Shown here: positions 7,092 to 39,923 of the stretch, piece after piece
Numbering within the stretch: the first letter of the stretch is position 1
Layout: each line of letters starts with the position of its first letter
Virus record (IMG/VR): IMGVR_UViG_3300035492_000269
Location: 1 to 39,923 of that record
DNA: 39,923 nt
Origin: a virus
Lineage: Duplodnaviria > Caudoviricetes
Direction: 5' to 3' (one strand)
The notes under the pieces: generated by a model
The model's input: only the letters and a program-made list of their open reading frames with translations
What the model was told of the DNA's origin: nothing
Database searches by the model: none
Made by a program: the position numbers and the translations under genes

Positions 7092-7094
7092 CCG

Positions 7095-24738: not shown

Positions 24739-24881
24739 AATTCACCTCAGATTTCACACAGGGCCGCGTCCCTCAGCAAAGGGGGCCACCCCCATTTTTC
24801 CCGCTCTTGCAAACGAGGTTCCCCCCGTCGTTCGAGAGTCCGTTGGTTGTGGACTTTTAGGTACCCCCCACCCCGGCCGAT
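24739..24881. other. Probable cos packaging region
   Basis: Non-coding gap with G/C runs between HNH and terS, the usual cos position in HK97/P27-like phages; cut site not resolved. Confidence 0.5.
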
Positions 24882-25250
24882 TCACTGATTCCAGTGGTGG
24901 CTGGCGTTGCGCGGGATTCCATCGTCCGAGCACCCAGGCTCGCCAGACTTCTCCACCCGTTGTTTGTAGCTGTCATGGCATTGCTTGCAGAGCGACTGCC
25001 AGTTCTTCCGATCCCAGAACAACCTTCGGGCTGCAGCAATCGCCAGCTTGCAACCACTCGCCAAGGCCTGACCAAGCCGGTGCGGTACCTTATGGTCCAC
25101 CACCGTAGCGGGCGTAACCCGGCCATGCCGCTTGCACTCCGCACACAGCGGATGCTCGGCCAACCAGACCAACCGCGCCTTCTGCCAGCGGTAGTCGTAG
25201 CCCTTGGCCGCACTGCTGGTGATCTTATTCGTCTTGGCTAGCGCGCCCAT
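24882..25250 (-). CDS. HNH endonuclease (HK97 gp74-like terminase cofactor)
   Basis: GYDYRWQKAR, HPLCAEC, ATVVDHKVPH, NWQSLCKQCHD. Confidence 0.9.
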   Translation of the reverse strand: MGALAKTNKITSSAAKGYDYRWQKARLVWLAEHPLCAECKRHGRVTPATVVDHKVPHRLGQALASGCKLAIAAARRLFWDRKNWQSLCKQCHDSYKQRVEKSGEPGCSDDGIPRNASHHWNQ

Positions 25251-25596
25251 GTGGCGGCACCCCACAAACCCCAGCCCGCTTAGCCGCCCAGCGCTCAAAC
25301 AAGCTGCTGGCTACATCGCCGCCCAGCATTGCCGAGAAGATACACAGGGCTGCGCTCAGGTACGGGTGCACAGCCAGAGCGAAAGCCGCCATGAATACCG
25401 CAATGCCAACCAAGCCAGCAGCGCCGAAGCGCATACCGATGCGGGCAGCAATCTGCCGCCAGCTCAGGTTGATCAGCGCGGAGGCTCGCAGCATCTCACC
25501 ACTCAGGCCGGATGCCAGGGCCAGGAGAATCGCCATCCACAACGGGATCTCGGCAATCGCCTTGCCGATGGGTGCAGGGTTGCTTGGGTCAGACAT
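25225..25596 (-). CDS. Holin (pyocin PA0614-like)
   Basis: IPLWMAILLALASGLSGEMLRA...GGDVA..LFERWAAKRAGVC; three hydrophobic segments. Confidence 0.85.
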   Translation of the reverse strand: MSDPSNPAPIGKAIAEIPLWMAILLALASGLSGEMLRASALINLSWRQIAARIGMRFGAAGLVGIAVFMAAFALAVHPYLSAALCIFSAMLGGDVASSLFERWAAKRAGVCGVPPHGRASQDE

Positions 25597-25616
25597 GCGG
25601 CCTCCGCGCTCTGAAT

Positions 25617-25642
25617 AAAAAAACCCAGCCGCTTGGCTGGGT
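25617..25642 (-). terminator. Second terminator in the late leader
   Basis: ACCCAGCC-AAGC-GGCTGGGT followed by T run. Confidence 0.7.
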
Positions 25643-25719
25643 AAAAGCCCTCACTGGGCTGCCATGATTGGGTGGCACCGCGTCCTTGGCAGAATCAGCA
25701 ACCGCCGGGCACCAGAAAC

Positions 25720-25745
25720 AAAAAACCCGGCACGTTGGCCGGGTT
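25720..25745 (-). terminator. First terminator in the late leader (tR'-like)
   Basis: AACCCGGC-CAACGT-GCCGGGTT followed by T run, about 30 nt after the -10 box. Confidence 0.7.
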
Positions 25746-25775
25746 GTGTTTGCAGACTTCTTTGAAGTTACGGGA

Positions 25776-25804
25776 TTTATACCCCCTGATTCTCATGGCA
25801 GCAA
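25776..25804 (-). promoter_or_regulatory. Late promoter (pR'-like)
   Basis: TTGCTG-17 nt-TATAAA on the minus strand, upstream of the holin. Confidence 0.7.
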
Positions 25805-25968
25805 GGGAGGTTTACTGCCATACCACCAGTGCGCCCGCAGTGTGCCGCCAATGTACCGCGAGTGCGCCGCGAGTATTCCCAATCTGGCTTTGGCGCCTGC
25901 GGCGCCTGACTCACCTGCCCCACCAGATTTAGACGTGAGACACCGCTCAACCCCACATCCTTACTGAC

Positions 25969-26157
25969 TGTGTCCCACTTCCTAACCTGTAAGGTAATAA
26001 TAGATATGTGCGCGCATGCACGCGTGCGCGCGTAGGCGCACACATGTACCCGCACGTACGGGGGACAGGGGTAAACGGTAGGGTGTTGGACACAGCCAGA
26101 GAATATGCGGCCTCCACGCTGCCCGACCTGAAAACGCAAGTGGGGAGGTGGGACACA
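25969..26157. other. Candidate replication origin
   Basis: Inverted 10-mers TGTGTCCCAC (25969) and GTGGGACACA (26148), internal GGACA variants, short AT-rich patch, 31-bp alternating purine/pyrimidine tract. Confidence 0.45.
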
Positions 26158-26173
26158 AACAAAAAAGCGCGCC

Positions 26174-26548
26174 TCATGCGGCGCGCTTCCGGTTCAACAA
26201 AGCCTGCTGTATCAGCACATGAGCCATGTGCAATCGCCTGTAAAACTGGGCTCGGCTGCAGCCACACGCCTCCAGGCGTTGGTACTCAAAGCTCTCATGG
26301 TTTACGTAGTGCTCCCATACCACCTGCGATTCCTTGAACGGCAGATGCTTGTTCACAATCAACTCAATATCGGCCGACTCGTCCAGCAACACGCGGCTAC
26401 CCCGCGTACTGCGGATCATCACCCCCTTGGCGTCGATCAACGCCCCCAGCGGGCTACCGCACTGGCCTCCAGACTCAAGCCACACACCGTCAGGCGGGTG
26501 CAACTCTGCGGCCCATAGCCGCAACATATCGTCGATAGCGCGAATCAT
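26174..26548 (-). CDS. PA0613-like putative late-gene regulator
   Basis: MI..ID.ML.LWA.ELH start and C-terminal HTH-like CGCSRAQFYRRLH.AH; Q position upstream of the late promoter. Confidence 0.7.
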   Translation of the reverse strand: MIRAIDDMLRLWAAELHPPDGVWLESGGQCGSPLGALIDAKGVMIRSTRGSRVLLDESADIELIVNKHLPFKESQVVWEHYVNHESFEYQRLEACGCSRAQFYRRLHMAHVLIQQALLNRKRAA

Positions 26549-28785
26549 AACACCGGCTCCCTCGGTGTCGATGGCTGATGTGCCCACGATTTCCAGTCAT
26601 CTGGCCGCAAGTAGGCGTAAGGCCGGATGCCATAGCGCCCCTGCGGTGCCAGCCGCCGCCGTCGCCAACGCAGCCGGTGCATCACCTGGCCAATTCGCGT
26701 TTGCTCTGGCCTGCCCCAGTGGCCGGGGTCCATGTTCAACGCCTTTTCCAGCAGCACATCGCTGGTGACAGTCTCACAGGGGTTGTCTTCCAGCCAACGC
26801 ACAATGCGCGGCTCCCAGGCATCGCCTTGAAAGCGCAGATCCTGTTCAGCGGTGAACATATCCATCTCGTCGGTCTGCGGCCACCAGGGCTCGCCAGCCA
26901 GATACAGCTCATAAGCCTCTGCCCACAGCTGGTCGCGCACCTCGGCCAAGCCGGTCAGATCCACCTTGGTACAGTCCACCGGCCAATAGCGGCGGTTACC
27001 CGTTGGATCGCGCAGGTATTCGTCCTGGTTGGTGGTGCCGGCAAAGACGCACTGTCTGGGCACGTCCACCGTGCGCCGGGCATAACTGGCCCGGAAGGTA
27101 TCCGTAGTCGCGCCAAAGAACTGCTTCGCCTTGGTACTCTCAACCTTGTTGAAGGCATCCAGCTCGCCCAGCTCGATCAGCCACTTGCCGCGGATCTGCT
27201 GAAACGCCTCTTTGTCCCCAAGCGGAAACGGCGTATCCATAAACCACTCGCCACCAAGGATCGACAGCGCAGTCGACTTACCCCGCCCCTGCAAGCCCTC
27301 AAGGATGATCACACAATCAGCCTTGGCGCCTGGTTTCATCACCCGCGCTACCGCAGACACCAGATAGCGCATACCCATAATGTCTGGGTAGTCCTCGCGG
27401 TCAGCCAGAGCACGGCCACCCAGGTACGTGCGCAACCAGCTGCGCAAGCGCGGCACACCATCCCAGCGCAGGCTCGCAAGGTACTCGCGCACCGGGTGCC
27501 ATTGGTGATCATGGGCAACCACACCCACCGCCTCCAGCACCGTCAGGGCCTTCACACGCAAGCCATACTGCTCGGCCAGCCAGATTGCCGTGCGCGTGTC
27601 GTCCAGGTCGCTCCACTCCCCTGCCTTGCCGCCATAGGGCGTGGCACGGCGCTTCACCGTCTTGGAGCTGAAAATATCCTCGGCAATCACCCCGGCCCAG
27701 CGCTCATCATTCGCGAGAATCAGCGCCACGTTCACCACATGCGCCACCAGTGCCCCGGTATTGCTGCGGTGCAAGTGCTCCCGCCAGCCGCCTTCGGCAC
27801 GGGGCCGAACCACCGCCATCACCTGCCGGCGCACCGCCTCAATACCCTCGGCCACATGCAGGTCGTTAAAGTCGGTCCACTTGTCTTCCCGCTCGCCCTC
27901 AAACAGCGGCATCACCACCCGGCCACCCACTACTGCAGCGGCGTTCTCAGCCTTCTCCTGCCCCGGATTCCAGGGCTCGCCTTTGGCGTTGGTGGTCTTC
28001 CAGTCGTCATCCGCGCAAAACACAAACTGGCGACCGGGGTAGCGCTCGCGCATTGCCTCGGCCACCGGCATCAGGTTGCCCGCGTCAAAGGCGATGGCCA
28101 CGCACATGCCGGTGGCCAAATGCAGGCTTGCGCCGGTGGCGTAGCCCTCACACAACAGCACCGCTTCACCCGGCTCCGGATGCGGCCCAATCAAGCAGAA
28201 CGCGCCCTCTTTCTGCAGGCCGGGCGGCCAGTAGCGTTTGCTCAGGCCGTCTTCATCTGGCTTATCAAACAGAATCTGCAGCCCCACCACCTGGTCGCGC
28301 ACGTTCAGCATTGGCACCAAAGCCGTGCCCGGCTTACGACCAAACCGCACCCCCAGCGCGGTGACCTGTTTGCGCTCCAGATACGCAGAGCGGCCACGCT
28401 CTGGCAACGTCTTCCACATGGCAGCAGCGCGCCGCCCTGCCCTTGCATGCCGCGCTGCCTGCTTGGCCGCCTCGCGTTTTTTGGTGGCATCAATCCGCGC
28501 CTTGATGACCTTGCGGTCTTCCTCGCTCATGCGGCCGCCAACCGGCTTTAACTTGTGAAAGTCGCCCTTGCTGCCCTCACGCCAGGAGCCGAACGCCCCC
28601 GCGTAAAACGTGCGCCCATCGTTCCGGTGCTCGTAAATCACATAAAAACCGGTGCGCGCTTTGCCCTGGTCGCCGTTCGCCTTGCAGCGGGTACGCACAC
28701 CAATTTCAAGCGGCGTGTCCGGGTCCAGCCCGGCATCGCGCAGTTGTGCCAACACGTCTTCCAACAGCTCATGTGCCTCAGCCAT
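26545..28785 (-). CDS. Primase-helicase: TOPRIM plus VapE/VirE ATPase
   Basis: LCEGYATG, AFDAGNL, ADDD, TDFND TOPRIM motifs; GLQGRGKST, IELGELD, GTTN...L.D.TGNRRYWP. Confidence 0.9.
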   Translation of the reverse strand: MAEAHELLEDVLAQLRDAGLDPDTPLEIGVRTRCKANGDQGKARTGFYVIYEHRNDGRTFYAGAFGSWREGSKGDFHKLKPVGGRMSEEDRKVIKARIDATKKREAAKQAARHARAGRRAAAMWKTLPERGRSAYLERKQVTALGVRFGRKPGTALVPMLNVRDQVVGLQILFDKPDEDGLSKRYWPPGLQKEGAFCLIGPHPEPGEAVLLCEGYATGASLHLATGMCVAIAFDAGNLMPVAEAMRERYPGRQFVFCADDDWKTTNAKGEPWNPGQEKAENAAAVVGGRVVMPLFEGEREDKWTDFNDLHVAEGIEAVRRQVMAVVRPRAEGGWREHLHRSNTGALVAHVVNVALILANDERWAGVIAEDIFSSKTVKRRATPYGGKAGEWSDLDDTRTAIWLAEQYGLRVKALTVLEAVGVVAHDHQWHPVREYLASLRWDGVPRLRSWLRTYLGGRALADREDYPDIMGMRYLVSAVARVMKPGAKADCVIILEGLQGRGKSTALSILGGEWFMDTPFPLGDKEAFQQIRGKWLIELGELDAFNKVESTKAKQFFGATTDTFRASYARRTVDVPRQCVFAGTTNQDEYLRDPTGNRRYWPVDCTKVDLTGLAEVRDQLWAEAYELYLAGEPWWPQTDEMDMFTAEQDLRFQGDAWEPRIVRWLEDNPCETVTSDVLLEKALNMDPGHWGRPEQTRIGQVMHRLRWRRRRLAPQGRYGIRPYAYLRPDDWKSWAHQPSTPREPVL

Positions 28786-29005
28786 GGCGTACCCCCTTTT
28801 GCTTGTGCTCAAACAGTGCTTGGCAATCCACGCAGCGAATGCAGCCGCAGCTGCTCAGCGCCGCCAGGCGTTCAGGTGCAATCGGGTCGCCGCAGTCTTC
28901 ACACTCAGGCGCGACCGTGCGCAAGGCATTGGCCGAACGGTCGGCCAACGTGCGGTCCAGGTAGCGCTGCACGTTGTCGGTGGCAATATCCGCGTTATCA
29001 GCCAT
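28778..29005 (-). CDS. TraR/DksA C4 zinc-finger protein (PtrB/PA0612-like)
   Basis: MAD.AD.A start; CEDCGDPI..ERL....C.RCVDCQ. Confidence 0.9.
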   Translation of the reverse strand: MADNADIATDNVQRYLDRTLADRSANALRTVAPECEDCGDPIAPERLAALSSCGCIRCVDCQALFEHKQKGVRHG

Positions 29006-29537
29006 GGGCTGGCCCTCCCTCAACGTGGTGGTCCAGCGTGCGCTCAAGCAGCAACAACGCGCCGTAAACGCGCTGAATGAGCTGCTTACACTCGGCCGCC
29101 TCGCTGTGGTCCAGCACCCCATCTGACAGGTGGTGCCCCAAGCGCTCTAGCAGGCCGCTCTGCTTGCGCAATGCTTCGCCCGCGCTCGTCAGCACCTCTG
29201 CCAGAGCCTCTACCTCGCCCCGGTGCTCACGCTGCTGCCGCTCAAGCAACGGCTGCAGGTCTACCCAGCAGGCATTGCCAAAGGCCGCAATCATGGAATC
29301 CACAATGCGCGGGTCGCGTGTGTAGGCGGTGATTTCTTCAACCTCAACGGGCGTGAGGTTATGAGTGCGCTGAGTGGGGCTCAGCTTGTGCTGCATGGTG
29401 GAAGGGTTACGCCCATATTGGGCAGCAAAACCGGCGGTACCGCCGGGCATTTCACGTAACGCGTGATAACAAGCAAGCTCCAGCGGCAACAACTCCCGCT
29501 TGGCCCGCTCGACGCAACTCATGGCTGCTCGACTCAT
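28998..29537 (-). CDS. Phage regulatory CII-family protein (186-type)
   Basis: PGG..G.A...GRN.ST.QHKLSP...THNL, C-terminal L.DG.LD..E; lies downstream of cro. Confidence 0.8.
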   Translation of the reverse strand: MSRAAMSCVERAKRELLPLELACYHALREMPGGTAGFAAQYGRNPSTMQHKLSPTQRTHNLTPVEVEEITAYTRDPRIVDSMIAAFGNACWVDLQPLLERQQREHRGEVEALAEVLTSAGEALRKQSGLLERLGHHLSDGVLDHSEAAECKQLIQRVYGALLLLERTLDHHVEGGPAHG

Positions 29538-29590
29538 GGCAGTTCTCTCCAAAGTCTGCCAGTGCCACAGCACACCTGTTTTGCTACAGT
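29537..29590 (+). promoter_or_regulatory. Putative establishment promoter (pRE/pE-like) with candidate CII sites
   Basis: GTGCCA-17 nt-TACAGT with extended TG; inverted repeat TGGCAG (29537-29542) and CTGCCA (29556-29561) just upstream of the -35. Confidence 0.55.
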
Positions 29591-29595
29591 TGCGC

Positions 29596-29966
29596 TGTGA
29601 GCACTGTCCCAGTGATCACAAACCCCTGGCCGGCTGCTCTGTGGTGGAAACGCCGGCCAGAAAAAAGGCATGGGCCACCGCTCCGTGGTGCCCGTGCCAA
29701 CCTGCCCGCCTATCTGTGGTGGAGACGGCGGGCAACCAACGGCCGGTAAATCTGTGGTGGAGATACCGGCAAGTCCTGATCCAATCAGGTCGGTGATAGC
29801 CGGGCATGCCCGGCAGTCACTACAGCTACATCAACCGATCATCTGTGGTGGAGATGTCGGCCCGGCTTACGCCGGAAGAACTTGGTCTTGGCCCAGCCTC
29901 CCGGCTGTACCGCGACCGAATCCAGCCCGTTACGGGGCTGGCTTTCATCACTGCCATGGAGAGCAG
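29596..29966. ncRNA. Structured cro-cII intergenic element: hairpin array with invariant GTGGTGG/CCACCAC loops
   Basis: Four hairpins (29626-29660, 29703-29734, 29742-29770, 29835-29860) share TCT-GTGGTGG-A(G/A)A while their outer stems differ in sequence yet remain paired; further hairpins are interspersed. Confidence 0.7.
29661..29698 (-). terminator. Putative tR1-like terminator before cII
   Basis: Minus strand GGCACGGG...CCCATGCC stem followed by TTTTTT; contains the CACCAC variant. Confidence 0.55.
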
Positions 29967-29990
29967 ATGTGAAATATGAAACCAAGCGCC

Positions 29991-30221
29991 TTACGCTGCG
30001 GCCTTTCTTCGTGCGACCCGCGTAAGTATTTCCTCTTCACTGAAAGGCTCGCCTGCAGCCTTCGCCAAAGCTGCAGCGTACGTTGTCTCCCCGGTGTAAT
30101 CAGTCCTGGGCAGAGCACCTGCAGCCAGCCACTTGTAGACCGCGCGAGCACTGACCCCGCAGATACCTGCAGCTGCAGTTACGCCGCCAACCTTTGCAAC
30201 AACCTCTCTCAGAGCGCTCAT
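29991..30221 (-). CDS. cro: Cro-like repressor
   Basis: GGVTAAAGICGVSARAVYKW HTH and LPRTDYTGET; divergent from cI. Confidence 0.9.
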   Translation of the reverse strand: MSALREVVAKVGGVTAAAGICGVSARAVYKWLAAGALPRTDYTGETTYAAALAKAAGEPFSEEEILTRVARRKAAA

Positions 30222-30234
30222 AGACAAACCTTTC

Positions 30235-30306
30235 TGAACTTTAGGTACAGATTAACTCGGTACTGAAAGTACAGTCAAGCACGTGCAATAGTGAACCCAT
30301 GGTACA
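30235..30306. promoter_or_regulatory. Right operator: three 15-bp sites plus divergent pR/pRM
   Basis: TGAAC-N5-GTACA (30235-30249), GGTAC-N5-GTACA (30259-30273), TGAAC-N5-GTACA (30292-30306); TTGACT -35 on the minus strand at 30273-30278. Confidence 0.8.
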
Positions 30307-31030
30307 AAATGACGAACTAAGACAAGCCTTTGCCCAACGCCTGAAAGCCGCCCTAAAAAATGTGGGGCAGGAATCTTGGGGGGCTGGCGTTTACTTGCGC
30401 GACGTAGCCGGTGTTTCCGACAAGGCAGCCAGCAAATGGCTGAATGGCGAGACTATGCCTGGCCGTGCCAACATGCTCACCATCGCACACCATCTGGGTG
30501 TACGTGTCGAATGGCTTCAATACGGCGAAGGCTCGCCAAGCAGCAAAGATGTTAAGGACAACAACGTGATAACCGCTGATTTTGCAGGTCGCGGCCGTCT
30601 TAAGGATGGCGAGATCTCAATCCCCCAGTACAACATCCGTGGCGCCATGGGTCATGGACAGGTGCCCGCCGATTACATCGAAACTGTCCGCCACCTGACG
30701 CTGCATGAGTCCCACCTGATTGGCCGGGGAATCTCGTTCAGCAAGGTTGAAAATCTTGCAGTGATCACCGGGTGGGGCCAAAGCATGGAAGGCACCATCA
30801 ACGACGGAGATCCGGTCATCATCGACCGCGGAGTTGACGCCTTTGTAGGTGATGGTGTTTACGTGTTCACTTGGGACAATCTTCTGTACATCAAGCGTCT
30901 GCAGAAGCACTCACCTACTCAGTTCGACATGATCAGCGACAACAAACAGCATAAAGATCAGATAGTTAATGTAAATGAAATAAGAATTCATGCTCGCGTA
31001 GTTCTAGTCTGGAATGCAAAAAAACTATAG
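30299..31030 (+). CDS. cI: CI repressor, XRE HTH plus S24 autopeptidase (PrtR-like)
   Basis: GVSDKAASKWLNGE..P HTH; GQSMEGTINDGD (Ser) and YIKRLQ (Lys). Confidence 0.95.
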   Translation: MVQNDELRQAFAQRLKAALKNVGQESWGAGVYLRDVAGVSDKAASKWLNGETMPGRANMLTIAHHLGVRVEWLQYGEGSPSSKDVKDNNVITADFAGRGRLKDGEISIPQYNIRGAMGHGQVPADYIETVRHLTLHESHLIGRGISFSKVENLAVITGWGQSMEGTINDGDPVIIDRGVDAFVGDGVYVFTWDNLLYIKRLQKHSPTQFDMISDNKQHKDQIVNVNEIRIHARVVLVWNAKKL

Positions 31031-31053
31031 CGCCACCGGTTACATGGATCGTT

Positions 31054-32901
31054 ATGTCATCAAAAAACCAGCAGAAACAGCCTTTAGATAAAAAAATAGA
31101 TAGCCTCAAACAGGCACTGGCAGCGAATCAATTTGAGCCGTACATCAGGCACATAAGATTCCCCCATTTCAAGAACTTATCACCTGGCCTTAGCTTATCT
31201 TTTGACTTCCCAATCACAGCGTTAGTCGGGCCAAACGGATCAAACAAAAGTTCAATACTACGGGCTATAGCTGCCTGCCCTCATTATGAGAACCTAGGAG
31301 ATTACTGGTTTTCAACCGACATCGACCCCATAGATGAAAAAGGTGGACGACCACGCTATATCTTTGGGTATTTCAACCCCCCAACAAAATCAATCGTTGA
31401 AGTAATCCAAACACGCATTAAAAAAGAAAAAGACCCTGATTATTGGGAACCCTCTCGACCTATCATTAAAGATGGCATGACCCCCATGCCAGATATCGAT
31501 AAAAGCTTGAGCGGGACCAATCTCAAGGAAGAGCTAAGCAGACTCGGCAGAAAAAAAACCAGATGGTCAGGCATTGAAAAAAACGTATTACTCATTGACT
31601 TCCGAAACGAGATAAGCGCATTTGACAAGGCGCTTTATCATGGCGACGCTAGCTCCCACTCTACAAGAAAAAAGGGGAAAGAGTTTCTAAGAGACAGGTC
31701 TAAGCACCTAAAAAAAGTAATTCAGGAGAACTTGAGTAGCTACAAACCTTTCAAGGGGAAAGAAGAAAAAATCTTACTTCGCGTCGAGCTCACCCAGGAA
31801 GAAGTCGATCAAATATCTTTGATACTTGGACGAGAATACAAAAAAATATCACTAATAAAGCATACGTTATTTGATAGCGAAGGCTTTACTGCAATCATGT
31901 CAACAAACCACTTAGACTACAGCGAGGCATTTGCTGGAAGTGGAGAATTCGCGGTTGTCATGCTGGTTTACAAGCTAAACCAAGCCCCCGCCAAAAGTCT
32001 GATAATCTTAGACGAACCGGAGGTATCCCTACACCCTGGAGCCCAAGTAAAACTGTCTGAATTTCTGATTTCAGTCTGCCTTGCAAACAAACACCAAATA
32101 TTTATAGGAACACACTCAAAGTTCATAATAGAGGCACTTCCAGCAGAAGCAATAACCCTGCTTCAACAAAATCAGATAACCGGGAAAATGGTAGCCCAGC
32201 AGAAAGTTAAGGCCAGTGAAGCATTTTTTCATCTCGGCCACTTAGCGCCGAACAAAACGAAAGTTTTCGTAGAGGATCGACTAGCCGAAGAGCTCGTAAA
32301 ACGTTGCCTCCGCACCATGGGCCCAGGTGCTTTCGACCAATTTGAGATAATTGCATTTCCCGGTGGCGCTCAGACCATTTTAGGCAAATGCATCCCAACA
32401 TTAGTTCAAACAAATGACAACAACAGCTTAATATTCCTTGATGGAGACCAAAAACCCGCTAATGCTCCGCGCATGGCGAACAGCATCCCTGCCACAGATA
32501 CCGAAAGCATCACAAAAGAGATAAAAAACATAACAGGCATTGACCAAATAAAATTCGCGCTACACAGCGGAACAAAAGAGGAAAAAAAACTACAGCAAGA
32601 AAAATTAGAGAGAAGCTACCTAGAGTTCTGCAATAACAATCTTTACTACCTTCCCGCCAACACCCCTGAAGAGTTCATCTGGAATGCTCTTGAGCTTGAC
32701 AAGGAAAGCAAATACAATAGCAGTCCGAGCCATAAAGACAAATTCGCAAATCTCACTCGAGACGAGCTTGCCAAAATGGACAACGAGCAAACCACTTCTG
32801 ACGAAATTCTGAGCCTTCAAGTGCGGTACCTAGCTAAAATCACTGAAAGCAACGAAGACATACAAGGCATATGTGAAATACTTAAAAAGTATCACAACTA
32901 A
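31054..32901 (+). CDS. ABC-ATPase plus TOPRIM nuclease (OLD-like)
   Basis: Walker A GPNGSNKS, signature AGSGE, Walker B/D-loop IILDEPEVSLHP, H-loop GTHS; TOPRIM VFVED, PGGA, LDGD; low GC. Confidence 0.85.
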   Translation: MSSKNQQKQPLDKKIDSLKQALAANQFEPYIRHIRFPHFKNLSPGLSLSFDFPITALVGPNGSNKSSILRAIAACPHYENLGDYWFSTDIDPIDEKGGRPRYIFGYFNPPTKSIVEVIQTRIKKEKDPDYWEPSRPIIKDGMTPMPDIDKSLSGTNLKEELSRLGRKKTRWSGIEKNVLLIDFRNEISAFDKALYHGDASSHSTRKKGKEFLRDRSKHLKKVIQENLSSYKPFKGKEEKILLRVELTQEEVDQISLILGREYKKISLIKHTLFDSEGFTAIMSTNHLDYSEAFAGSGEFAVVMLVYKLNQAPAKSLIILDEPEVSLHPGAQVKLSEFLISVCLANKHQIFIGTHSKFIIEALPAEAITLLQQNQITGKMVAQQKVKASEAFFHLGHLAPNKTKVFVEDRLAEELVKRCLRTMGPGAFDQFEIIAFPGGAQTILGKCIPTLVQTNDNNSLIFLDGDQKPANAPRMANSIPATDTESITKEIKNITGIDQIKFALHSGTKEEKKLQQEKLERSYLEFCNNNLYYLPANTPEEFIWNALELDKESKYNSSPSHKDKFANLTRDELAKMDNEQTTSDEILSLQVRYLAKITESNEDIQGICEILKKYHN

Positions 32902-32903
32902 TC

Positions 32904-33929
32904 ATGAGCATTGACGTTTTCGATTTTTTCTCTGGCTGCGGCGGCACTAGCTGCGGCTTTAAGGCTGCAGGATTCAATATCAAACTTGGCCTAGATATTG
33001 ATCCATCTGCATCAAAAACCTTTGCAGAGAACTTCCCAGAAGCAGAAGTCATAAACGGTGACATTAGAGCACTTTCTACAGACGCGCTCAGTACTGCTAT
33101 AGGAGCCAGGAAAAATAAAATTTTGTTTTCCGGGTGTGCGCCTTGCCAACCATTTTCCAAACAAAACAGGCAAAATAAACCTTCTGACGCTCGCGCCACA
33201 CTATTAGATGAATTTGCTCGATTCGTTGAGCACTGGCTGCCTGATTATGTTTTTATCGAAAACGTACCCGGCATGCAGAATAATTCAAGGAAAAGCGCTA
33301 TATTTAACCGCTTTCTCAAAACTCTGGAAAGGCTGAACTATAGTTACGACTCTGAAGTCGTGGAAGCGCAATGGTTTGGAGTTCCACAAAAACGGCGCCG
33401 ACTGATCCTTGTTGCATCACTCAATAGCCCAGTCAAAATTCCCCAAAGGACACACGGCCCTGATTTGAAGCCCTATTCAACAGTACGGGAATGGATCTAC
33501 GACCTACCCCGGATCAATCACGGCCAAGTCCACCAAAGCGATCCCGACCACTTCGCCCTCGGCCTATCCGAGATAAACTTGGCACGGATTCGGCTTACTC
33601 CCGAAGGCGGAGGCCGAAGCTCTTGGCCAGAGTCACTGCTCATCAATTGCCATCGCAATTACAGCGGTCATACCGATGTATATGGCAGGCTTAGCTGGGA
33701 CAAGCCTGCGGTCGGCCTGACAACCCGCTGTATCAGCTACTCCAACGGGCGTTTTGGCCACCCAGAACAAGATAGAGCTATCAGTCTCAGAGAAGCTGCA
33801 TGCCTACAAACCTTTCCACGAGACTTTCGTTTTCACGGCACCAAGTCGTCGAAGTCGTTGCAGGTGGGCAATGCTGTACCCCCGCTGATGGCTCAGGCAA
33901 TCGCACAAAGCTTTACCAAAATGCAATAG
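32904..33929 (+). CDS. DNA cytosine-C5 methyltransferase
   Basis: FFSGCGG (I), PCQPFS (IV), ENVPG (VI), Q.RRR (VIII), RAISLREAA.LQTFP (IX), QVGNAVPP (X). Confidence 0.95.
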   Translation: MSIDVFDFFSGCGGTSCGFKAAGFNIKLGLDIDPSASKTFAENFPEAEVINGDIRALSTDALSTAIGARKNKILFSGCAPCQPFSKQNRQNKPSDARATLLDEFARFVEHWLPDYVFIENVPGMQNNSRKSAIFNRFLKTLERLNYSYDSEVVEAQWFGVPQKRRRLILVASLNSPVKIPQRTHGPDLKPYSTVREWIYDLPRINHGQVHQSDPDHFALGLSEINLARIRLTPEGGGRSSWPESLLINCHRNYSGHTDVYGRLSWDKPAVGLTTRCISYSNGRFGHPEQDRAISLREAACLQTFPRDFRFHGTKSSKSLQVGNAVPPLMAQAIAQSFTKMQ

Positions 33930-33982
33930 CTAAACCCATTTAGTTGGCTGGGCCAGCCTTAATCTGCCCTAGGCTCTGCAAC

Positions 33983-34011
33983 TTTACAAATATGTACTTT
34001 TGGTTCATATT
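33983..34011 (+). promoter_or_regulatory. pL-like early promoter with left operator
   Basis: TTTACA-17 nt-CATATT; operator TGTAC-N5-GTTCA at 33993-34007 matches the cro/cI operators. Confidence 0.8.
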
Positions 34012-34014
34012 CTT

Positions 34015-34039
34015 CTCGTCTCTCCACCACAGAGCCGAG
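34015..34039 (+). promoter_or_regulatory. 5' leader hairpin with CCACCAC loop covering the RBS
   Basis: CTCG-T-CTCT-CCACCAC-AGAG-C-CGAG; the 13-mer TCTCCACCACAGA is the exact reverse complement of the array repeat. Confidence 0.65.
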
Positions 34040-34046
34040 GTAAGCA

Positions 34047-34208
34047 ATGAAGACCACCACACTCCACGCGCTGCCATCCTGCAGCGCAGACCGCATCTTT
34101 GAGCTGCGCAGAGCCGCACGCGACGCCGGCGCCCGGTATGTTGCCAGCCGGCCGCGCCTGGTCAGCCGTGCGCCCTCCTCTTCACCACAGGGAGGCGACG
34201 CAGCATGA
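34047..34208 (+). CDS. 53-aa Arg-rich first gene of the pL operon (absent from the ORF track)
   Basis: GAGG RBS; MKTTTLHALPSCSADRIFELRRAARDAGARYVASRPRLVSRAPSSSPQGGDAA; ATGA overlap with the next gene. Confidence 0.75.
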   Translation: MKTTTLHALPSCSADRIFELRRAARDAGARYVASRPRLVSRAPSSSPQGGDAA

Positions 34209-34735
34209 GCATGCTCACACTTAACCCCGCCAGTCACGCACGCCTGCCAGCACAACTGGCACTCAACGGCACCTTTGAACACACCCTGCGCAACAGCCTG
34301 GGCGTTAGCACCACCGTGCGACTGCTGGTGCTGCAATGCAGTCACGCGGTTGAGCTGACTGTGAGTAGCAGTCAGGGCCAGAGCAGCATCACCCTCAAGC
34401 GCCCGGCCTGCCCAGAACGGGCTGCGCGGTTTATCCAGGGCGCGGCCAACGGCGTGCACGCAGAAGCCACCCAGCTGGACGAGTGGGATCTGGTCAGCGA
34501 CGTAGAAAGCACCCTGCGCCGGGCGGTCGTGCTGCGGCAAGGCACCCAGCAGTTCACGACAGACGACGAGCTGGACGTGGAGGTGACCAGCTCACCAGAG
34601 CGCACCTGCATTCAAGTGCATGACACTCGCCTATGCATGGCCCTGCCGGCTGACCCCGAGACGGCCTATCAGCAACTGCACGAGCTGCTGCAGCGCTTTC
34701 TCAGCGCCTGCCGCAGCACCGCACAGGTAGCCTGA
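34205..34735 (+). CDS. Hypothetical early protein
   Basis: 176 aa, GGAGG RBS, coupled in the operon. Confidence 0.75.
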   Translation: MSMLTLNPASHARLPAQLALNGTFEHTLRNSLGVSTTVRLLVLQCSHAVELTVSSSQGQSSITLKRPACPERAARFIQGAANGVHAEATQLDEWDLVSDVESTLRRAVVLRQGTQQFTTDDELDVEVTSSPERTCIQVHDTRLCMALPADPETAYQQLHELLQRFLSACRSTAQVA

Positions 34736-34745
34736 GAGGTGGCCC

Positions 34746-35036
34746 ATGTACGCATATACGTTGCAAAGCGCTGCTCAGGCGCTGGGCATCACGCGGCCAG
34801 AGCTGATCAAGCGCATGCGCGCCAAAAGGCTGCTGAACGACCGCAACCTGCCCGCCCAACCACAGCGGCACCGTGCTTATCTGTTTGTGCACGAGAGCAG
34901 CTGGCCGCACCCGTCACTTGGCATGCAGTACAGCAGCTCTACCCGCATTCGCCGGGACGGGCTGCGCTGGCTCGCCTTCCAGCTCGACATGCAACCGCCG
35001 GCACCGCCACCACCGGACCGGGCAGATGTCGCGTGA
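34746..35036 (+). CDS. KilA-C/ANT-like DNA-binding protein
   Basis: TLQSAAQALGITRPELIKRMR...LL...NLP and final T.I...GLRWLA pattern. Confidence 0.65.
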   Translation: MYAYTLQSAAQALGITRPELIKRMRAKRLLNDRNLPAQPQRHRAYLFVHESSWPHPSLGMQYSSSTRIRRDGLRWLAFQLDMQPPAPPPPDRADVA

Positions 35037-35235
35037 CGCTCAGCACCTGCGCATCAACGGCCAGACCGTGCAACCGCTCACGCCCCGCGCCTGGGCAGCC
35101 GCCATTGTGCAACTGCCCACGCTGGCCGAGCGCCGCGCTGCGATGGAGCTGGTCCCGCCCCATTGGCAAGCGCTGGTGCGCACGCACCTGACCATTGCCT
35201 GGAACCACCCACAACGCAACAAGGAGCCATCGTGA
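35026..35235 (+). CDS. Hypothetical early protein, 69 aa
   Basis: MSRDAQ...PRAWAAAIVQL.T..ERRAA...VP.HWQALVRTH; overlaps both neighbours. Confidence 0.6.
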   Translation: MSRDAQHLRINGQTVQPLTPRAWAAAIVQLPTLAERRAAMELVPPHWQALVRTHLTIAWNHPQRNKEPS

Positions 35236-35555
35236 CCGAGGACACAGCCCAACAGGTTCTGCGCCTGCACACGCCGCCCCGGCCAAGCACGCTGGACATG
35301 CTCTTTCGCATGTTTGGCACCGTGCTGGTGCCTCGCGAGGAGCTGCGCGAGCGCCTGTTTCGCAACGTCAATGAAGACCGCTTTAAGCGCGTACTCGGCA
35401 CCCCGCGCCTGCCACTTCCGGTCACCACCCTGGAAGAAAGCCGCGAGGCCCGCCAGTACATCGAGATCCACCATCTGGCCGCCTACATCGACCAGCGCGC
35501 CGCCCGAGCGGACAACACGCTGGCCAAGGCACTGGCACCACCAGAACAACCCTGA
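35232..35555 (+). CDS. PrtN-like (pyocin activator family) protein, copy 1
   Basis: TLDMLFR.FG.VLVP.E.LR...FRN.N...F...LPLPVTTL..S..A..YIEI.HLAAYID; AAGGAG RBS with GTG start. Confidence 0.7.
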   Translation: MTEDTAQQVLRLHTPPRPSTLDMLFRMFGTVLVPREELRERLFRNVNEDRFKRVLGTPRLPLPVTTLEESREARQYIEIHHLAAYIDQRAARADNTLAKALAPPEQP

Positions 35556-35601
35556 CGACCCGGCCGCCACCACCGGCCCCATAAACCACGGAGCAACCAC
35601 C

Positions 35602-36072
35602 ATGGATATGCAACCCACCACCCTTGTTGGCCTATGCATTTTGATCTGCGCACCGCTCGCGCTGTACTTCTACGGCTTGCGCATTGGCCGCGGCGAACGC
35701 GACGTGCAGCACGAGATTGAACGGGATCTGTTGAACAGCAAAGCAAGCCGGCATGAGCGCTTGGCCAGCGAGCAGCAGCACATCGCAGACCGCCAGCAGC
35801 AGACCATCACAGAGCTAAGCGCCCGTCTGCGCGAAGTAAAAGTGCTGCAGGTGCTAGACCGCAGCGCCCTGCTGCAGGCGGCCACCACGCTGGATCTGGC
35901 CGCCCGCACCTTTGACGCGTTTAACGCCCCACAGGCCGAGACCGCGCGCGAGCTGCGCGACGAGTGCCGCAACATGGCCACGCGCCTGGGCTGGGTTGAG
36001 CCAGCACCGCAGAGCCTGAGCACCGCCAGCCCAGAAGATACAGCGCAGGTAATGCAGGGGGGTGCGGCATGA
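35602..36072 (+). CDS. N-terminally membrane-anchored coiled-coil protein
   Basis: Hydrophobic LVGLCILICAPLALYFYG then coiled coil; GGAG RBS. Confidence 0.7.
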   Translation: MDMQPTTLVGLCILICAPLALYFYGLRIGRGERDVQHEIERDLLNSKASRHERLASEQQHIADRQQQTITELSARLREVKVLQVLDRSALLQAATTLDLAARTFDAFNAPQAETARELRDECRNMATRLGWVEPAPQSLSTASPEDTAQVMQGGAA

Positions 36073-36674
36073 GCTGGATACTCACCCACACCGGCAAACA
36101 CTTTGACCTGATGCAACCGAGCGCGGAGAACGTGAGTCCGCTGGATATTGCGCACGCACTGGCGCACCTGTGCCGCTTCAACGGCCACACCCACCGCTTT
36201 TACAGCGTGGCGCAACACAGTTGCATAGTGGCAGAGCTGGTACCCGCAGAGCACCGCTTGGCCGCCCTGCTGCACGATGCCACCGAAGCATACATTGGCG
36301 ACATCACACGCCCTTTTAAGGCGCTGCTACCAGTCGCCCGCCAGATCGAGCAGCACATCTGGCACGCGATCTGCGCCCGCTTCCGGCTCGATCCGGAGCT
36401 GCCGGCGAGCGTACACGACGCCGACATGATCGCCCTGGCCACAGAGAAGCGCGACCTGATGCCAAGCGACGGAACAGCTTGGCCGTGCCTGCATGGCACC
36501 CAACCACTTGCTCAGCGCCTACGCGCGTGGAGCAGCGAGGAAGCGTTTCACCAGTATCAGGTACAGCTGTTTAACGAGCTGACCGCCCACAACCGCCGCT
36601 TGGCACTGCAAACACAGCAGCCCCGACAACCCGCATCACCGGCTTACCTATCGGAAGGGAGAGACTGCGCATGA
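36069..36674 (+). CDS. HD-domain phosphohydrolase (YfbR/YfdR-like)
   Basis: DIAHALA..CRFNGH, YSVAQHS, LLHDATEAYIGD, AD..ALATEKRDL. Confidence 0.9.
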   Translation: MSWILTHTGKHFDLMQPSAENVSPLDIAHALAHLCRFNGHTHRFYSVAQHSCIVAELVPAEHRLAALLHDATEAYIGDITRPFKALLPVARQIEQHIWHAICARFRLDPELPASVHDADMIALATEKRDLMPSDGTAWPCLHGTQPLAQRLRAWSSEEAFHQYQVQLFNELTAHNRRLALQTQQPRQPASPAYLSEGRDCA

Positions 36675-37252
36675 CTACCTGCACAGCAGCCGCTGCCACT
36701 TACACCACCGCTCCTGCCGCGCTGCTGCGCGGCGGCGACCATCGCTCGGTGCATGAGGCGACCGCCGCACCAGACGGTCGCCCTCACAAAACCAACGGCA
36801 GCGGCATAAAGAGCCACTGCCCCGCAGGGGCAGGCATTATCAATCCCTCAGCCAGCACCCGCAGAACCGCCAATACCCCCACCCAAGGCGTGCGCCACGC
36901 AGCAGAACCGAGCACACCGCTCCGCTCTGGGGGTGGTGCTGCAGCGCAGCTTGTGGAGGGGTATAAGCGAGACCTGAGCCATATCACCATGCCAAAAGCT
37001 TGCGTGAGCTGCCTGCACTACCAAGCCAAGGGGTTCGCCAACGATGCTCACTGCCCATTCTCAACCTGGAATGGGCGCAAGCAGCGAACACCCTACGGCA
37101 CATGCAGCCTGCACAAACAGGAGGTGTTTGCGACCGAGATTTGCACTAGCTACAGCTGCGATCCACAGGTGCACCCCATAGAGGTGGAAAACCGTCCGAG
37201 CCCACGCACGCCCATGCAGGAGCAGCTCGGCCTTGAGGGCTGCGTAAGATGA
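36671..37252 (+). CDS. Hypothetical protein with C-terminal Cys-rich domain
   Basis: Low-complexity N-terminus; C..C.HY...C...G.C..H...C; ATGA overlaps on both sides. Confidence 0.6.
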   Translation: MTTCTAAAATYTTAPAALLRGGDHRSVHEATAAPDGRPHKTNGSGIKSHCPAGAGIINPSASTRRTANTPTQGVRHAAEPSTPLRSGGGAAAQLVEGYKRDLSHITMPKACVSCLHYQAKGFANDAHCPFSTWNGRKQRTPYGTCSLHKQEVFATEICTSYSCDPQVHPIEVENRPSPRTPMQEQLGLEGCVR

Positions 37253-37527
37253 ACACGTTATTCTTGCTCATGGCGCAATACAGCGGGCTGGCAGTGATAC
37301 CGCTAGACAAGGTGTGCACTGACTACTTCAGCCACCTAAGCGTGGAGAAGCTGCAGCGCAAGGTGATGGCGGCAGAGATAGACCTACCGATTGTGCGGAT
37401 GGAGGGCAGCCAGAAAGCCGCGAAGGGAGTGCACGTGCAGGATCTGGCCAAGTACCTGGACGATCAGCGGGCGAAGGCGGTGATTGAGAATGACAAGTTG
37501 CAGGGACGGTATCGCCGCGCAGGATGA
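37249..37527 (+). CDS. PrtN-family protein, copy 2 (candidate excisionase)
   Basis: MNTLFLLMAQY.G.AVIPL..VC.DYF.HL...SQKAAKGVH..DLA.YLD; last gene of the early operon, nearest the integrase. Confidence 0.85.
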   Translation: MNTLFLLMAQYSGLAVIPLDKVCTDYFSHLSVEKLQRKVMAAEIDLPIVRMEGSQKAAKGVHVQDLAKYLDDQRAKAVIENDKLQGRYRRAG

Positions 37528-37542
37528 GCGCGGCGCGTCCAA

Positions 37543-38532
37543 TCAATAGTCCCAATGAGAAAAGCGAAGTATGTTCTCGAGAGAACAATATTGAATATCT
37601 TGTGTTTTAAATACTCGAGTCCAAAATGATTTCCGAGCTGATTTCCGGACTTCTGGTCTAAACCACTCAACAATTAACACCGGCCTTGATCGAGCAAAGG
37701 CAGCAATCATCTCGTTTAGATGATCGTCTAAGCCTGAATACCCAAATACGATAATTTTTTCGGACTCACTCAAGGCGTCATTCAAAAACCGCCAATAAGC
37801 AGACAGCACTGCCGAAGCACCAATAACCGTCCTTTTATGGCGTACGTGGGTCAAAACAATATGATCAGACCCTTCAACAGAGAAAGGATCTAGATCCCAT
37901 CGCTGACGCTTGCGAGCCAAACCATCTTCATGATCAAAAAACAGCGGAGAGCCATGTAAATGGAGATAATAGCCAAAGTCGTTATTATTCATACGCTCTA
38001 GATTTTCAGGACGGAACCCTCTATCGATCATGCCATCAACGAGAGTCGTATTGAAATAATCTCTCATCAATCCACGATCTATAAAAGCCCCATAAAGAAG
38101 CCTGTCATAATTGAGCGTTGCAACGTGTGATTTAGTCTCACGTAGAAACTCTAAAAGCGGCTCCAAAAAATCGTCCGGCAAACGCCCATCAAAAAGGTGT
38201 AGCCTGGTGGCTACCTTATGGATATAGTTGCCTACCGCTTCAGGAAAAGCTTGCCCTTCAGGGCTCAGCCAGTGAACATCCATGTGCTGCGAAGCGCTCA
38301 CTTGTTTCAAGGTTCTGCAAGCGGCGACGACACGATGCAGCGGATCCAACTGATCCTCAGTTTGGGGAATAATATCTTCGCCCCCCAAACAAGTACTTAT
38401 CAGAAGTTTCTCTTGACGGCTAAGGTAGTCTGGATTATTCCAGACATCAGCCATAGCATTTGGCAAATAGAAATGCTCCGAATCTAATGCCATACCCAAG
38501 CCATTACCGAATATCAAAGTCCTTTTTACCAT
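37543..38532 (-). CDS. SIR2-like (SIR2_2/AbiH-type fold) protein, candidate defence NADase
   Basis: IFGNG, ATLNYD, LHLHGS, VFGYSGLDDHL motifs; low GC; starts 7 nt after the int stop. Confidence 0.8.
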   Translation of the reverse strand: MVKRTLIFGNGLGMALDSEHFYLPNAMADVWNNPDYLSRQEKLLISTCLGGEDIIPQTEDQLDPLHRVVAACRTLKQVSASQHMDVHWLSPEGQAFPEAVGNYIHKVATRLHLFDGRLPDDFLEPLLEFLRETKSHVATLNYDRLLYGAFIDRGLMRDYFNTTLVDGMIDRGFRPENLERMNNNDFGYYLHLHGSPLFFDHEDGLARKRQRWDLDPFSVEGSDHIVLTHVRHKRTVIGASAVLSAYWRFLNDALSESEKIIVFGYSGLDDHLNEMIAAFARSRPVLIVEWFRPEVRKSARKSFWTRVFKTQDIQYCSLENILRFSHWDY

Positions 38533-38539
38533 CCCTGTT

Positions 38540-39631
38540 CTACTCCAAGTGACGAGCCGATAAATTCCATTCTGCGTAACGATCACCCCGCCCGCGAAGG
38601 TGAGTATAGCGACGCAAAGAATTCCAGTCGCGATGCCCAGACACACTGGCCACCCGAGGAATATCCCAGTCCATCTCAAATAGCCTACTCACACCATCAT
38701 GCCGCAAATCATGAAAGCGCAGATCCTCGATCTCCAGAAACTTGCACGCCCTGGTGAATGAGGCTGATATAGAGCTGGAGTTATAGGGAAATATCTCGTC
38801 AGCCAGCCGCGGCATGCTCTGGACAATGGCCCATGCCTCATCAGGCAGGTGGCACCACACATCGTTGCCCAGCTTCTGGCCGGGGTTCTTCATATCCCGC
38901 ACCAGTACGCGCTGGCCGGCCTCGTCCAGGTCGGCCCAGCGAATGCGGGTGATCTCGTCTTGCCGGCGCGTAGAGAACAGCGCGAAGGCAATCACCTTTG
39001 GCATGGGTATGGATGAAGGCCGACGCTGTTGCATCTCGGAGAAGTGCGTCATGAGCAGGTCCAGCTCTTCAAGGCTCGGCCGGCGGTCACGCTCTTTGCT
39101 CCGAGACGCCATGCCCATTTTGCGCAGTACCTTGCGGGCATCAGCCATCGCGTGATGATCCACCTCAAAGCCCCAGGCAGGCCGTGCTACAGACATCACC
39201 GCACCCAGGTGGGAAAGGTCATTGCCGATGGTCTGCGGCTGCACCGCCCCGCCCTGGTCACTGCGGCGCCAGTGCGCATACTCGACCAGGCGCTGACTGG
39301 TGAGGTCGCTGTCGGCCAGGTCGCCCAACCAGGTATCGGCAATCGCCTTCAATGTTGCACGCTTGGTTTTGCCCAGCGGCCGCACCCGCTCAAACTCTTC
39401 CAGGTAGCGCAAGATCATTTCTCGCACAGTCACACCAGCGCGCACAGCTTTATCAAGCGCACCCGGCTGGGCCAGCTCCCCTTCTCGCTTTTTCAGCCAG
39501 GCGCTGGCGGCTTGCTTGCGCTCAAAGGTTTGGCTTTCCTGATAAACTACGCTGCCTCGGCGCTTGATCCGGATCTGCGCCGTATAACTCGATTTTCCGT
39601 TCTTGCGTTTGCGTTCTGTGATGGTACCCAT
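38540..39631 (-). CDS. int: dusA-associated tyrosine integrase
   Basis: TRRQDEI, RDMKNP, FHDLRH, SGHRDW..LRRY catalytic residues; divergent from dusA. Confidence 0.95.
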   Translation of the reverse strand: MGTITERKRKNGKSSYTAQIRIKRRGSVVYQESQTFERKQAASAWLKKREGELAQPGALDKAVRAGVTVREMILRYLEEFERVRPLGKTKRATLKAIADTWLGDLADSDLTSQRLVEYAHWRRSDQGGAVQPQTIGNDLSHLGAVMSVARPAWGFEVDHHAMADARKVLRKMGMASRSKERDRRPSLEELDLLMTHFSEMQQRRPSSIPMPKVIAFALFSTRRQDEITRIRWADLDEAGQRVLVRDMKNPGQKLGNDVWCHLPDEAWAIVQSMPRLADEIFPYNSSSISASFTRACKFLEIEDLRFHDLRHDGVSRLFEMDWDIPRVASVSGHRDWNSLRRYTHLRGRGDRYAEWNLSARHLE

Positions 39632-39633
39632 GG

Positions 39634-39673
39634 CGGTGCTACATTTTTTTTGACGGTGCTACATTGTAGCACC
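39634..39673. repeat. Putative integrase arm / autoregulation sites
   Basis: CGGTGCTACATT repeated at 39634 and 39654 (20-bp period); GGTGCTACA-T-TGTAGCACC palindrome at 39655-39673. Confidence 0.65.
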
Positions 39674-39730
39674 CACCTTAAAAAAACAGCCGAAAACAGC
39701 AGAAATTAAGCACTAAACAGGCAGTCAGAA

Positions 39731-39923
39731 ATGCACCCAGAATCACCATCCAGCCCAGTAACCACGCGGCAAGAGCCCAATCGCCGCTTCTCCGTGGCGC
39801 CGATGATGGACTGGACTGATCGCCACTATCGCTACTTTGCGCGGCTGATCAGCCGACACGCATTGCTGTATACCGAGATGGTGACAACCGGTGCGGTGCT
39901 GCATGGTGATCCCGAGCGGTTTC
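39731..39923 (+). CDS. dusA: tRNA-dihydrouridine synthase A, 5' part (reconstituted; runs off the window)
   Basis: [43 protein letters not shown]. Confidence 0.95.
39797..39810 (+). repeat. Right att core GCGCCGATGATGGA
   Basis: Exact direct repeat of 146-159. Confidence 0.9.

Follow-up and report, generated by a model that had tools for sequence, protein, structure and literature searches.

The subject of this analysis is a 39,923-nucleotide (nt) stretch of DNA from a Caudoviricetes virus, IMG/VR record IMGVR_UViG_3300035492_000269, hereafter the window, which is a temperate phage. Hairpins with a CCACCAC loop recur at translation starts along its pL operon and as an array in the spacer between cro and cII. 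We found these to form a real, conserved module in which two operon hairpins, ahead of the open reading frames (ORFs) orf1 and orf6, are the likely core targets; a third, ahead of orf2, is a possible local extra, and a fourth, ahead of orf4, is probably a chance occurrence. We consider it likely that the motifs at orf1 and orf6 are targets of a multi-loop antisense RNA, boosted by CII, that represses translation.

Motif hairpins precede the two translational blocks of the pL operon

The motif YCACCAC occurs 34 times in the window compared to 11.3 +/- 3.6 times in shuffled sequences, an approximately 3-fold over-representation across its whole length, which makes the baseline of an earlier note on this DNA, roughly one CCACCAC per 10 kb per strand, too low. 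The CCACCAC copies listed in that note are all present in the sequence where it placed them. The count from a single window is weak, and it is relatives chosen without the motif that decide. These were selected by cII similarity alone (160 loci; 141 once duplicates were removed and the window was included), and the motif was counted by strand within 60 nt upstream of each gene start. A further 147 loci from a motif scan, having been chosen on the motif itself, were excluded from the enrichment counts, and 44 non-redundant motif- or record-derived loci were used for covariation only. Relatedness was judged on a quick cII tree. The loci are not independent, as one clade (clade 0) holds 94 of the 136 full spacers, and the counts therefore overstate independence.

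On the sense strand, the motif preceded orf1 in 110 of 125 loci and orf6 in 91 of 95. Corresponding counts for the other genes were 8/118 for orf2, 1/124 for ant, 0/122 for prtN1, and, in the block headed by orf6, 1/42 for HD and 10/95 for orf8; the count for orf4 was 3/118, or at most 7/118 given that start assignment omitted the window and three near-identical relatives. The antisense strand provided a single upstream motif overall, at ant. The enrichment by strand and position that the earlier note had proposed to look for in relatives is thus found on the sense strand before orf1 and orf6 and not before other genes. A shorter core, ACCAC or ACCAA between -20 and +14, was found at orf1 in 109/125 loci and at orf6 in 88/95, the range for other genes being 1/124 to 31/118. 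These two genes are the uncoupled starts that head the operon's two translationally coupled blocks: gaps of at most 12 nt separate orf1 from orf2 (111/112), orf2 from ant (115/115) and ant from orf4 (112/118), and the gap between prtN1 and orf6 is at least 30 nt in 74 of 84 loci.

Both starts usually carry a second C/A word, located at the Shine-Dalgarno sequence (SD) or start codon. The earlier note had placed second copies in the first codons of both genes. The orf1 copy (34054-60) marks a real second site, with codon 4 being ACA in 57 of 103 threonine cases compared to 513 of 3693 in neighbouring genes, but we rejected the orf6 copy (35615-21) as a conserved site, since the exact heptamer occurs within the first 45 nt of orf6 in 5/95 loci (10/125 for orf1). 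The second orf6 site is instead 35585-35594, which was absent from the earlier list.

The individual hairpins differ considerably in quality. The hairpin before orf6 (35562-35578) is present as described, folds at -7.1 kcal/mol, and its stem pairs swap between T-A and C-G and between G-C and C-G among 40 distinct copies. The orf2 hairpin (34171-34197) also folds as described, at -8.9 kcal/mol, and pairs with the GGGAGG of orf2. It is confined to few lineages and could form a 12-base-pair (bp) duplex with the predicted antisense RNA here (net -13.4 kcal/mol), making it a possible local extra site. The proposed orf4 hairpin (35004-35016) did not hold up as a conserved site; it amounts to a 3-bp stem of -0.4 kcal/mol in proline codons of ant, found in at most 7/118 relatives. 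The orf1 hairpin (34015-34039), taken by the earlier note to include the GAG of the SD in its stem, does fold at -7.1 kcal/mol, but the arm that pairs with the SD lies mostly upstream of the predicted transcription start, because the predicted pL -10 element ends 11-13 nt before the loop in 116/123 loci and the outer stem begins 9-14 nt before it. RNA beginning at the predicted start retains a stem of -1.9 kcal/mol in the window, and as this start falls inside the 5' arm, the SD-hiding stem is predicted to form, probably, just in RNA reading through from upstream.

We considered whether these hairpins might act in cis only, tuning their own ribosome-binding sites, with the likeness to the array arising from duplication or conversion; at orf1, the hairpin would silence read-through RNA from cI, as in IS10. 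The probability that the SD is paired is 0.97 in the full hairpin and 0.66 for RNA begun at the predicted start (n = 118), the end of cI lies less than 200 nt before orf1 in 61/125 loci, and the orf6 stem covaries, all of which are consistent with such a role. This explanation is nonetheless a distinctly unlikely one, as the loop is invariant while the stems vary, placement is strict at two starts, and compensatory changes in the outer orf1 stem (4 pairs compared to 3.5 in shuffles, 236/500; 65 of 90 distinct leaders, about eight window-type rows being one column out of register) are not above chance. Effects in cis may also act alongside the antisense mechanism. Two other explanations of the motif, tRNA-like CCA ends and Chi-like sites, were set aside with no test aimed at them.

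The cro-cII array matches its likely targets and varies with them

The motif was present on the pR sense strand in 135 of 136 spacers and on the opposite strand in none. As array and targets both read CCACCAC in the mRNA sense, only the opposite strand of the array can pair with the targets; pairing by the sense array is impossible at the loops and was rejected, its net energy never falling below -6.8 kcal/mol over 20 regions. For each gene, we took the longest stretch shared exactly by the array and the start region; it averaged 12.1 nt for orf1 and 11.2 nt for orf6, compared to about 7 nt for the other six genes and 6.5-7.2 nt for the opposite strand, and matches extend through the stems to 12-17 nt. 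Match length and shared variants uphold the earlier view of the orf1 and orf6 sites as cognate partners of the array, although not of four equal sites. Control of the whole operon, also proposed there, would not act through a site at every gene but could reach the remaining genes by coupling below the two entry points.

Variants are shared between the array and its targets. Three joint changes were seen in clade 0: array hairpin 2 shares a double change with the orf6 start in 2/77, hairpin 1 shares a T variant with the orf6 loop in 7/77, and hairpin 3 shares a TT variant with the orf1 loop in 5/87. Second-site words specific to a lineage are matched by its own array over 10 nt in the window's clade, 13 nt in Halomonas phage H4907 (L008), 11 nt in L007, 9 nt in Pseudomonas aeruginosa phages U5 and Haddon, and 11 nt in L315, and further distinct words, each found in its own array, occur in L159/L236 and L220/L238/L257. 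The cognate array exceeded the mean of arrays from other clades in 15 of 18 non-major loci, and the orf1 site B match was 8.2 nt for the cognate array compared to 7.2 nt (n = 42). The array loops thus appear, from sequence, to be complementary to their targets and to change with them, in few independent events. A single protein would poorly explain a constant CCACCAC loop accompanied by changing second-site words.

Sites also occur at other genes in some lineages. Full multi-site motif clusters, varying with the array, lie at a Q-like gene start in 4/128 loci (L203, L233, L259 and L315), and seven loci have a site between the SD and ATG of a cro-type gene approximately 570 nt upstream of cII. 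Phage H4907 has a motif copy ahead of cro (L008:9017). The distant relative L007 (cII 28%) has altered loop words, yet its own orf1 leader and initial codons match them. An 11-nt match to array positions 29669-29679 is found at the SD and start of ant in the window (34738-34748). As targets, we rejected the starts of ant (conserved in 0/124, net -5.7 kcal/mol), int (net -10.7 kcal/mol here, conserved in just 1/76) and dksA (29025; 10-nt array match in 0/136 relatives). With heteroimmunity of prophages sharing a host genome in mind, we compared six co-resident Pseudomonas pairs; the loop variant differed in three (L288/L293, L295/L296 and L280/L307) and was alike in three.

The layout of the sites, one after pL and several after cro, would also suit antitermination sites resembling nut or put, recognised by an N-like protein or by the polymerase itself, and it resembles the topology in lambda and HK022. 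A nut site comprises boxA and boxB and is read by an arginine-rich N protein, and put is a two-stem fold. Sense terminator-like signals lie within 240 nt of cII in 30/136 spacers, including 5/5 in the window's clade. This reading is very unlikely in our estimation: the sites sit on start codons and SDs, including those of Q-like and cro-type genes in some lineages, variants are shared at non-loop words, and the relatives of orf1, for which neither Pfam nor the Atlas gave a family (0.88 being the best score), have no obvious arginine-rich motif. No member of the N family was found among 19 genes scanned, with no boxA search or put model run. One terminator-like signal on the pR strand, seen in 5/5 of the window's clade, consists of a hairpin at 29668-29700 that matches orf6 site B and is followed by a T run.

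Predicted promoter and terminator signals of a putative antisense transcript

The strand opposite the array carries the elements of a predicted transcription unit. An extended -10 element pointing into the array lies 43-45 nt upstream of the cII start in 112/136 spacers (controls, 0 and 1/136), and an inverted repeat with a 14-16-nt spacer lies over the cII start in 109/136. The available text of PMC6593788 places the site of phage 186 CII at pE at -38/-58. Half-sites in the window lie at -58/-38 of the predicted start, the 186 geometry, and are combined with a CII of the CP76 family, as expected of a 186-type promoter. In clade 0, an antisense terminator near cro is present in 94/94 spacers compared to 6/94 for the sense control.

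The predicted antisense RNA folds at z -5.8 with GUGGUGG at its hairpin tips. Its net pairing energies, opening costs included, are -19.4 kcal/mol for orf1, -13.4 for orf2, -12.2 for orf6, -10.7 for int and -9.6 for orf4.

For L085, a P. aeruginosa-type relative, RNA data from runs X9 and X11 contain a discrete zone of high depth at approximately 6925-7075, over loops 2-4 and within the predicted 6884-7135 transcript. Single records in this zone reach depths of 2540 and 3154, compared to flanks of 137-285 and 212-586, respectively. RNA of the array is thus abundant in this relative, and would derive from the antisense strand under the proposed model.

The edges of this peak fall near motif loops, and the orf1 and orf2 hairpins hide the SD, which together could suggest that the antisense RNA pairs but activates, by opening SD-hiding stems, or that the loops are processing sites. 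We regard either role as highly improbable, given that the second sites cover the SD or AUG directly and that contig edges do not define RNA ends.

Several observations count against an antisense repressor. The joint variants of clade 0 derive mostly from one 11-row subclade and L313 on the quick tree, and so represent few events, and the permutation counts for shared array and target variants ignore relatedness. Target changes compatible with wobble pairing are in excess (17 vs 1 and 6 vs 1), which is partly built in because a C/A motif changes in that way solely by transition, and at the orf1 loop compatible and other changes number 12 and 11. Antisense terminators were found in 8/42 spacers outside clade 0 and in 0/5 of the window's clade, and the predicted accessibility of the loops is low (0.01-0.31). 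Wobble pairs give the antisense strand no advantage when helices are called on both strands (40 G-U vs 47 A-C cells), counts from hand-drawn helices favour the sense strand (404 vs 180 cells; 24 vs 22 columns), and the sense fold is therefore under selection too. The antisense model leaves unexplained both the GGA-loop hairpins, of which there are two per spacer in 104/136, and, in clade 0, one motif hairpin located upstream of where the antisense RNA is predicted to start. In the RNA data, X9 and X11 are contigs from one study and give neither strand nor ends; X5 and X13, from two other studies, have flat long contigs with no peak, such that two of the four runs holding the prophage show it; the prophage is absent from raw-read runs X21, X23 and X24; and the peak spans approximately 150 nt, less than the predicted 250 nt.

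Both kinds of unexplained hairpin have further features. The GGA-loop hairpins alternate with motif hairpins in the spacers of relatives (e.g. L044:7140-7170) and resemble RsmA/CsrA sites. The clade-0 hairpin, at approximately -48 from the cII start, overlaps the antisense -10 element and would exist in pR RNA alone; it is possible that it represents a target-type site for cII.

Such features bring to mind a CsrA/CsrB-type code, in which a protein of the phage or host binds ACCAC loops at the two starts, the sense pR array serves as a sponge and the antisense promoter is an ordinary pE. Array and targets have the same sense in both transcripts, sense-strand wobbles are conserved, GGA loops alternate with ACCAC loops, the -48 hairpin lies upstream of the antisense start, and each target has a loop site and an SD site spaced by approximately 25 nt, which is the arrangement of CsrA targets. 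We nevertheless judge a protein code unlikely. Second-site words vary by lineage and are tracked by the cognate array, the matches run through stems over 12-17 nt, the clade-0 antisense terminator before cro would stop a pE-cI message, and there was no candidate RNA-binding gene among the 19 genes scanned.

A model for antisense control of the lytic blocks

In the antisense model that we favour, the predicted pE-type promoter, probably boosted by CII, would make a multi-hairpin RNA of 250-350 nt opposite the cro-cII spacer. Pairing would begin as kissing contacts between its GUGGU(GG) loops and the CCACCAC loops of the targets and then lengthen to 10-17 bp, with another loop masking the SD or start codon, so that ribosomes could not load at orf1 and orf6. 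Coupling and polarity would then lower the levels of the antirepressor, excisionase-like and downstream proteins, favouring lysogeny, and the fully complementary pR transcript would titrate the antisense RNA during lytic growth. More tentatively, and with some doubt on our part, CII may have been rewired across this widespread phage family, such that pE yields, in place of a cI message, a modular RNA with multiple exchangeable loops directed at the entry points of lytic blocks, and the pR strand of the same DNA acts as its built-in sponge.

If this is true, the entry points addressed would be the pL blocks plus Q or cro in some lineages, a single locus would constitute a two-strand RNA toggle, and loop variants would define immunity groups at the level of RNA. 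Under the favoured antisense model itself, the choice between lysis and dormancy would gain a layer of control by RNA, and a common class of lambdoid prophages would use a CII-linked, multi-target small RNA in the lysis-lysogeny decision. The natural loop and target variants represent ready-made specificity swaps.

Genomic context and distribution

The minus strand of the switch region carries, in order, cro, a 450-nt spacer, cII, a DksA-type zinc finger gene and a primase-helicase, and the plus strand carries cI, an AAA ATPase, a C5 methylase and then the pL operon (34047-37527), whose content includes one KilAC antirepressor-like gene and two PrtN/excisionase-like genes (Table 1). The closest named relative of orf2 is from Halopseudomonas phragmitis, at 86% identity. 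The element is present in prophages of many Pseudomonas species, Halopseudomonas, Azotobacter and Halomonadaceae, and in the cultured phages U5, Haddon and H4907.

The AAA ATPase (phrog_3940, AAA_15/AAA_21) and C5 DNA methylase genes between cI and pL (31054-33929) resemble defence cargo, and as cI and orf1 are at least 1 kb apart in 57/125 relatives, this interval is a cargo hot spot. A SIR2_2-domain gene on the minus strand between prtN2 and int (37543-38679), which overlaps the end of int, is likely anti-phage cargo.

Table 1. Features of the module and neighbouring genes.
Feature	Position	Strand	Evidence
cII, CP76 family	28998..29537	-	PF06892
Predicted CII operator: inverted repeat spanning the cII start, with half-sites centred near -58 and -38 of the predicted antisense start	29537..29561	.	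109/136 relatives
Extended -10 element of a predicted pE-like promoter for the antisense RNA; start near 29597	29582..29590	+	112/136
Predicted multi-hairpin antisense RNA, 3' end uncertain	29597..29950	+	fold z -5.8
GUGGUGG loops of the predicted antisense RNA	29641, 29716, 29754, 29845	+	
Anti-orf6-SD hairpin of the predicted antisense RNA	near 29680	+	
Weak terminator-like hairpin, candidate 3' end in the window's lineage	29922..29949	+	sequence; no terminator called in 5/5 of the window's clade
cro-like repressor	29991..30227	-	family searches
cI-like repressor with S24 peptidase domain	30299..31030	+	family searches
Predicted pL promoter (-35, 17 nt, -10), predicted start about 34018	33983..34011	+	same position in 116/123 relatives
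Hairpin in the orf1 leader, with site A at 34021-34035 (13-nt match to four array loops)	34015..34039	+	
orf1, 53 amino acids, heads coupled block 1 (orf1-orf2-ant-orf4-prtN1)	34047..34208	+	PHROG 35204, gene gaps
orf1 site B, codons 3-5, second pairing site	34054..34061	+	conserved core, shared variants
Hairpin covering the orf2 SD, possible lineage-specific extra site	34171..34197	+	motif 8/118
ant, KilAC-domain antirepressor-like, within block 1, without a conserved site of its own	34746..35036	+	PF03374 above cut-off; motif 1/124
3-bp stem in proline codons of ant, probably chance	35004..35016	+	-0.4 kcal/mol; at most 7/118
orf6 leader hairpin, site A, in the operon's only real gap	35562..35578	+	91/95
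orf6 site B, over the SD	35585..35594	+	10-nt match to array 29680-29689
orf6, heads coupled block 2 (orf6-HD-orf8-prtN2)	35602..36072	+	gene gaps, relatives
cro-type start sites	L187, L230, L275, L290, L301, L308, L312		

Comparison with known systems

We found no description of the module in full-text literature or Rfam, subscription papers and supplementary small-RNA lists lying outside this search. The available parts of the papers on H4907 (PMC10580944) and MD8 (PMC8508860) make no mention of antisense, non-coding or hairpin in the former, and of hairpin or antitermin in the latter.

The CsrB/RsmZ sponges repeat the motif of the ribosome-binding-site targets of CsrA/RsmA. The module is similar in having a loop array that repeats a motif found at ribosome-binding sites, with GGA loops present, but its motif is ACCAC and its variants change with the targets; spacers hold 0-3 GGA loops each, and Rfam searches gave no Rsm match over the array.

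Like c4 of P1/P7 (immI, c4-icd-ant), CI RNA of P4 and CA RNA of N15, the module has a predicted small phage RNA that would pair in trans, and, as with c4, its short two-part targets lie ahead of a small ORF coupled to an antirepressor. Pairing of the c4 type takes place at two-part target sites. The c4 RNA is encoded in the leader of its own target operon, on the same strand, and is processed by RNase P, whereas the pairing sequence of the module lies approximately 4 kb from its targets, on the opposite strand of the cro-cII spacer, and its predicted RNA exceeds c4 in size, has at least four loops and comes with a predicted CII site. The C4 family of Rfam gave no match at E of at most 5 in window positions 24000-39923, nor at E of at most 1 in 15 short loci and L250. 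Given the lack of a match and the different location, the module is not a C4 member, and would instead act in a c4/sar-like manner while belonging to no Rfam family. Background on c4, CI, sar and aQ is provided by the available portions of PMC8201110, PMC3632133, PMC12197685, PMC5415839, PMC4488713 and PMC7067206, of which the first describes control of P1/P7 ant by C4 and Icd and the second the CI/seqA system of P4.

As with lambda aQ and OOP, the predicted transcript is an antisense RNA of the switch region, and four relatives carry a site on a Q-like start. The lambda promoter paQ is activated by CII. Unlike aQ and OOP, which act in cis and overlap their gene, the module RNA would act in trans through repeated loops. 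In the available text of PMC12197685, aQ RNA lowers Q, and P22 sar RNA blocks initiation of antirepressor synthesis and aids lysogeny. An antisense block on antirepressor synthesis is likewise proposed here, via coupling, but sar is 68-69 nt long with one target, whereas the module would use several 10-17-nt patches at two block heads, ant itself being without a site.

The closest promoter arrangement is that of phage 186 pE, with which the module shares a CP76-family CII, an inverted repeat at -38/-58 and a promoter facing pR. In contrast to 186 pE, which makes cI mRNA, the predicted transcript of the module is a hairpin array; as for read-through from pE to cI, a terminator lies before cro in all 94 clade-0 spacers and in none of the five from the window's clade. 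Should the antisense model be correct, the known circuits of lambda, 186, P22 and P1 would provide single-target counterparts at most.

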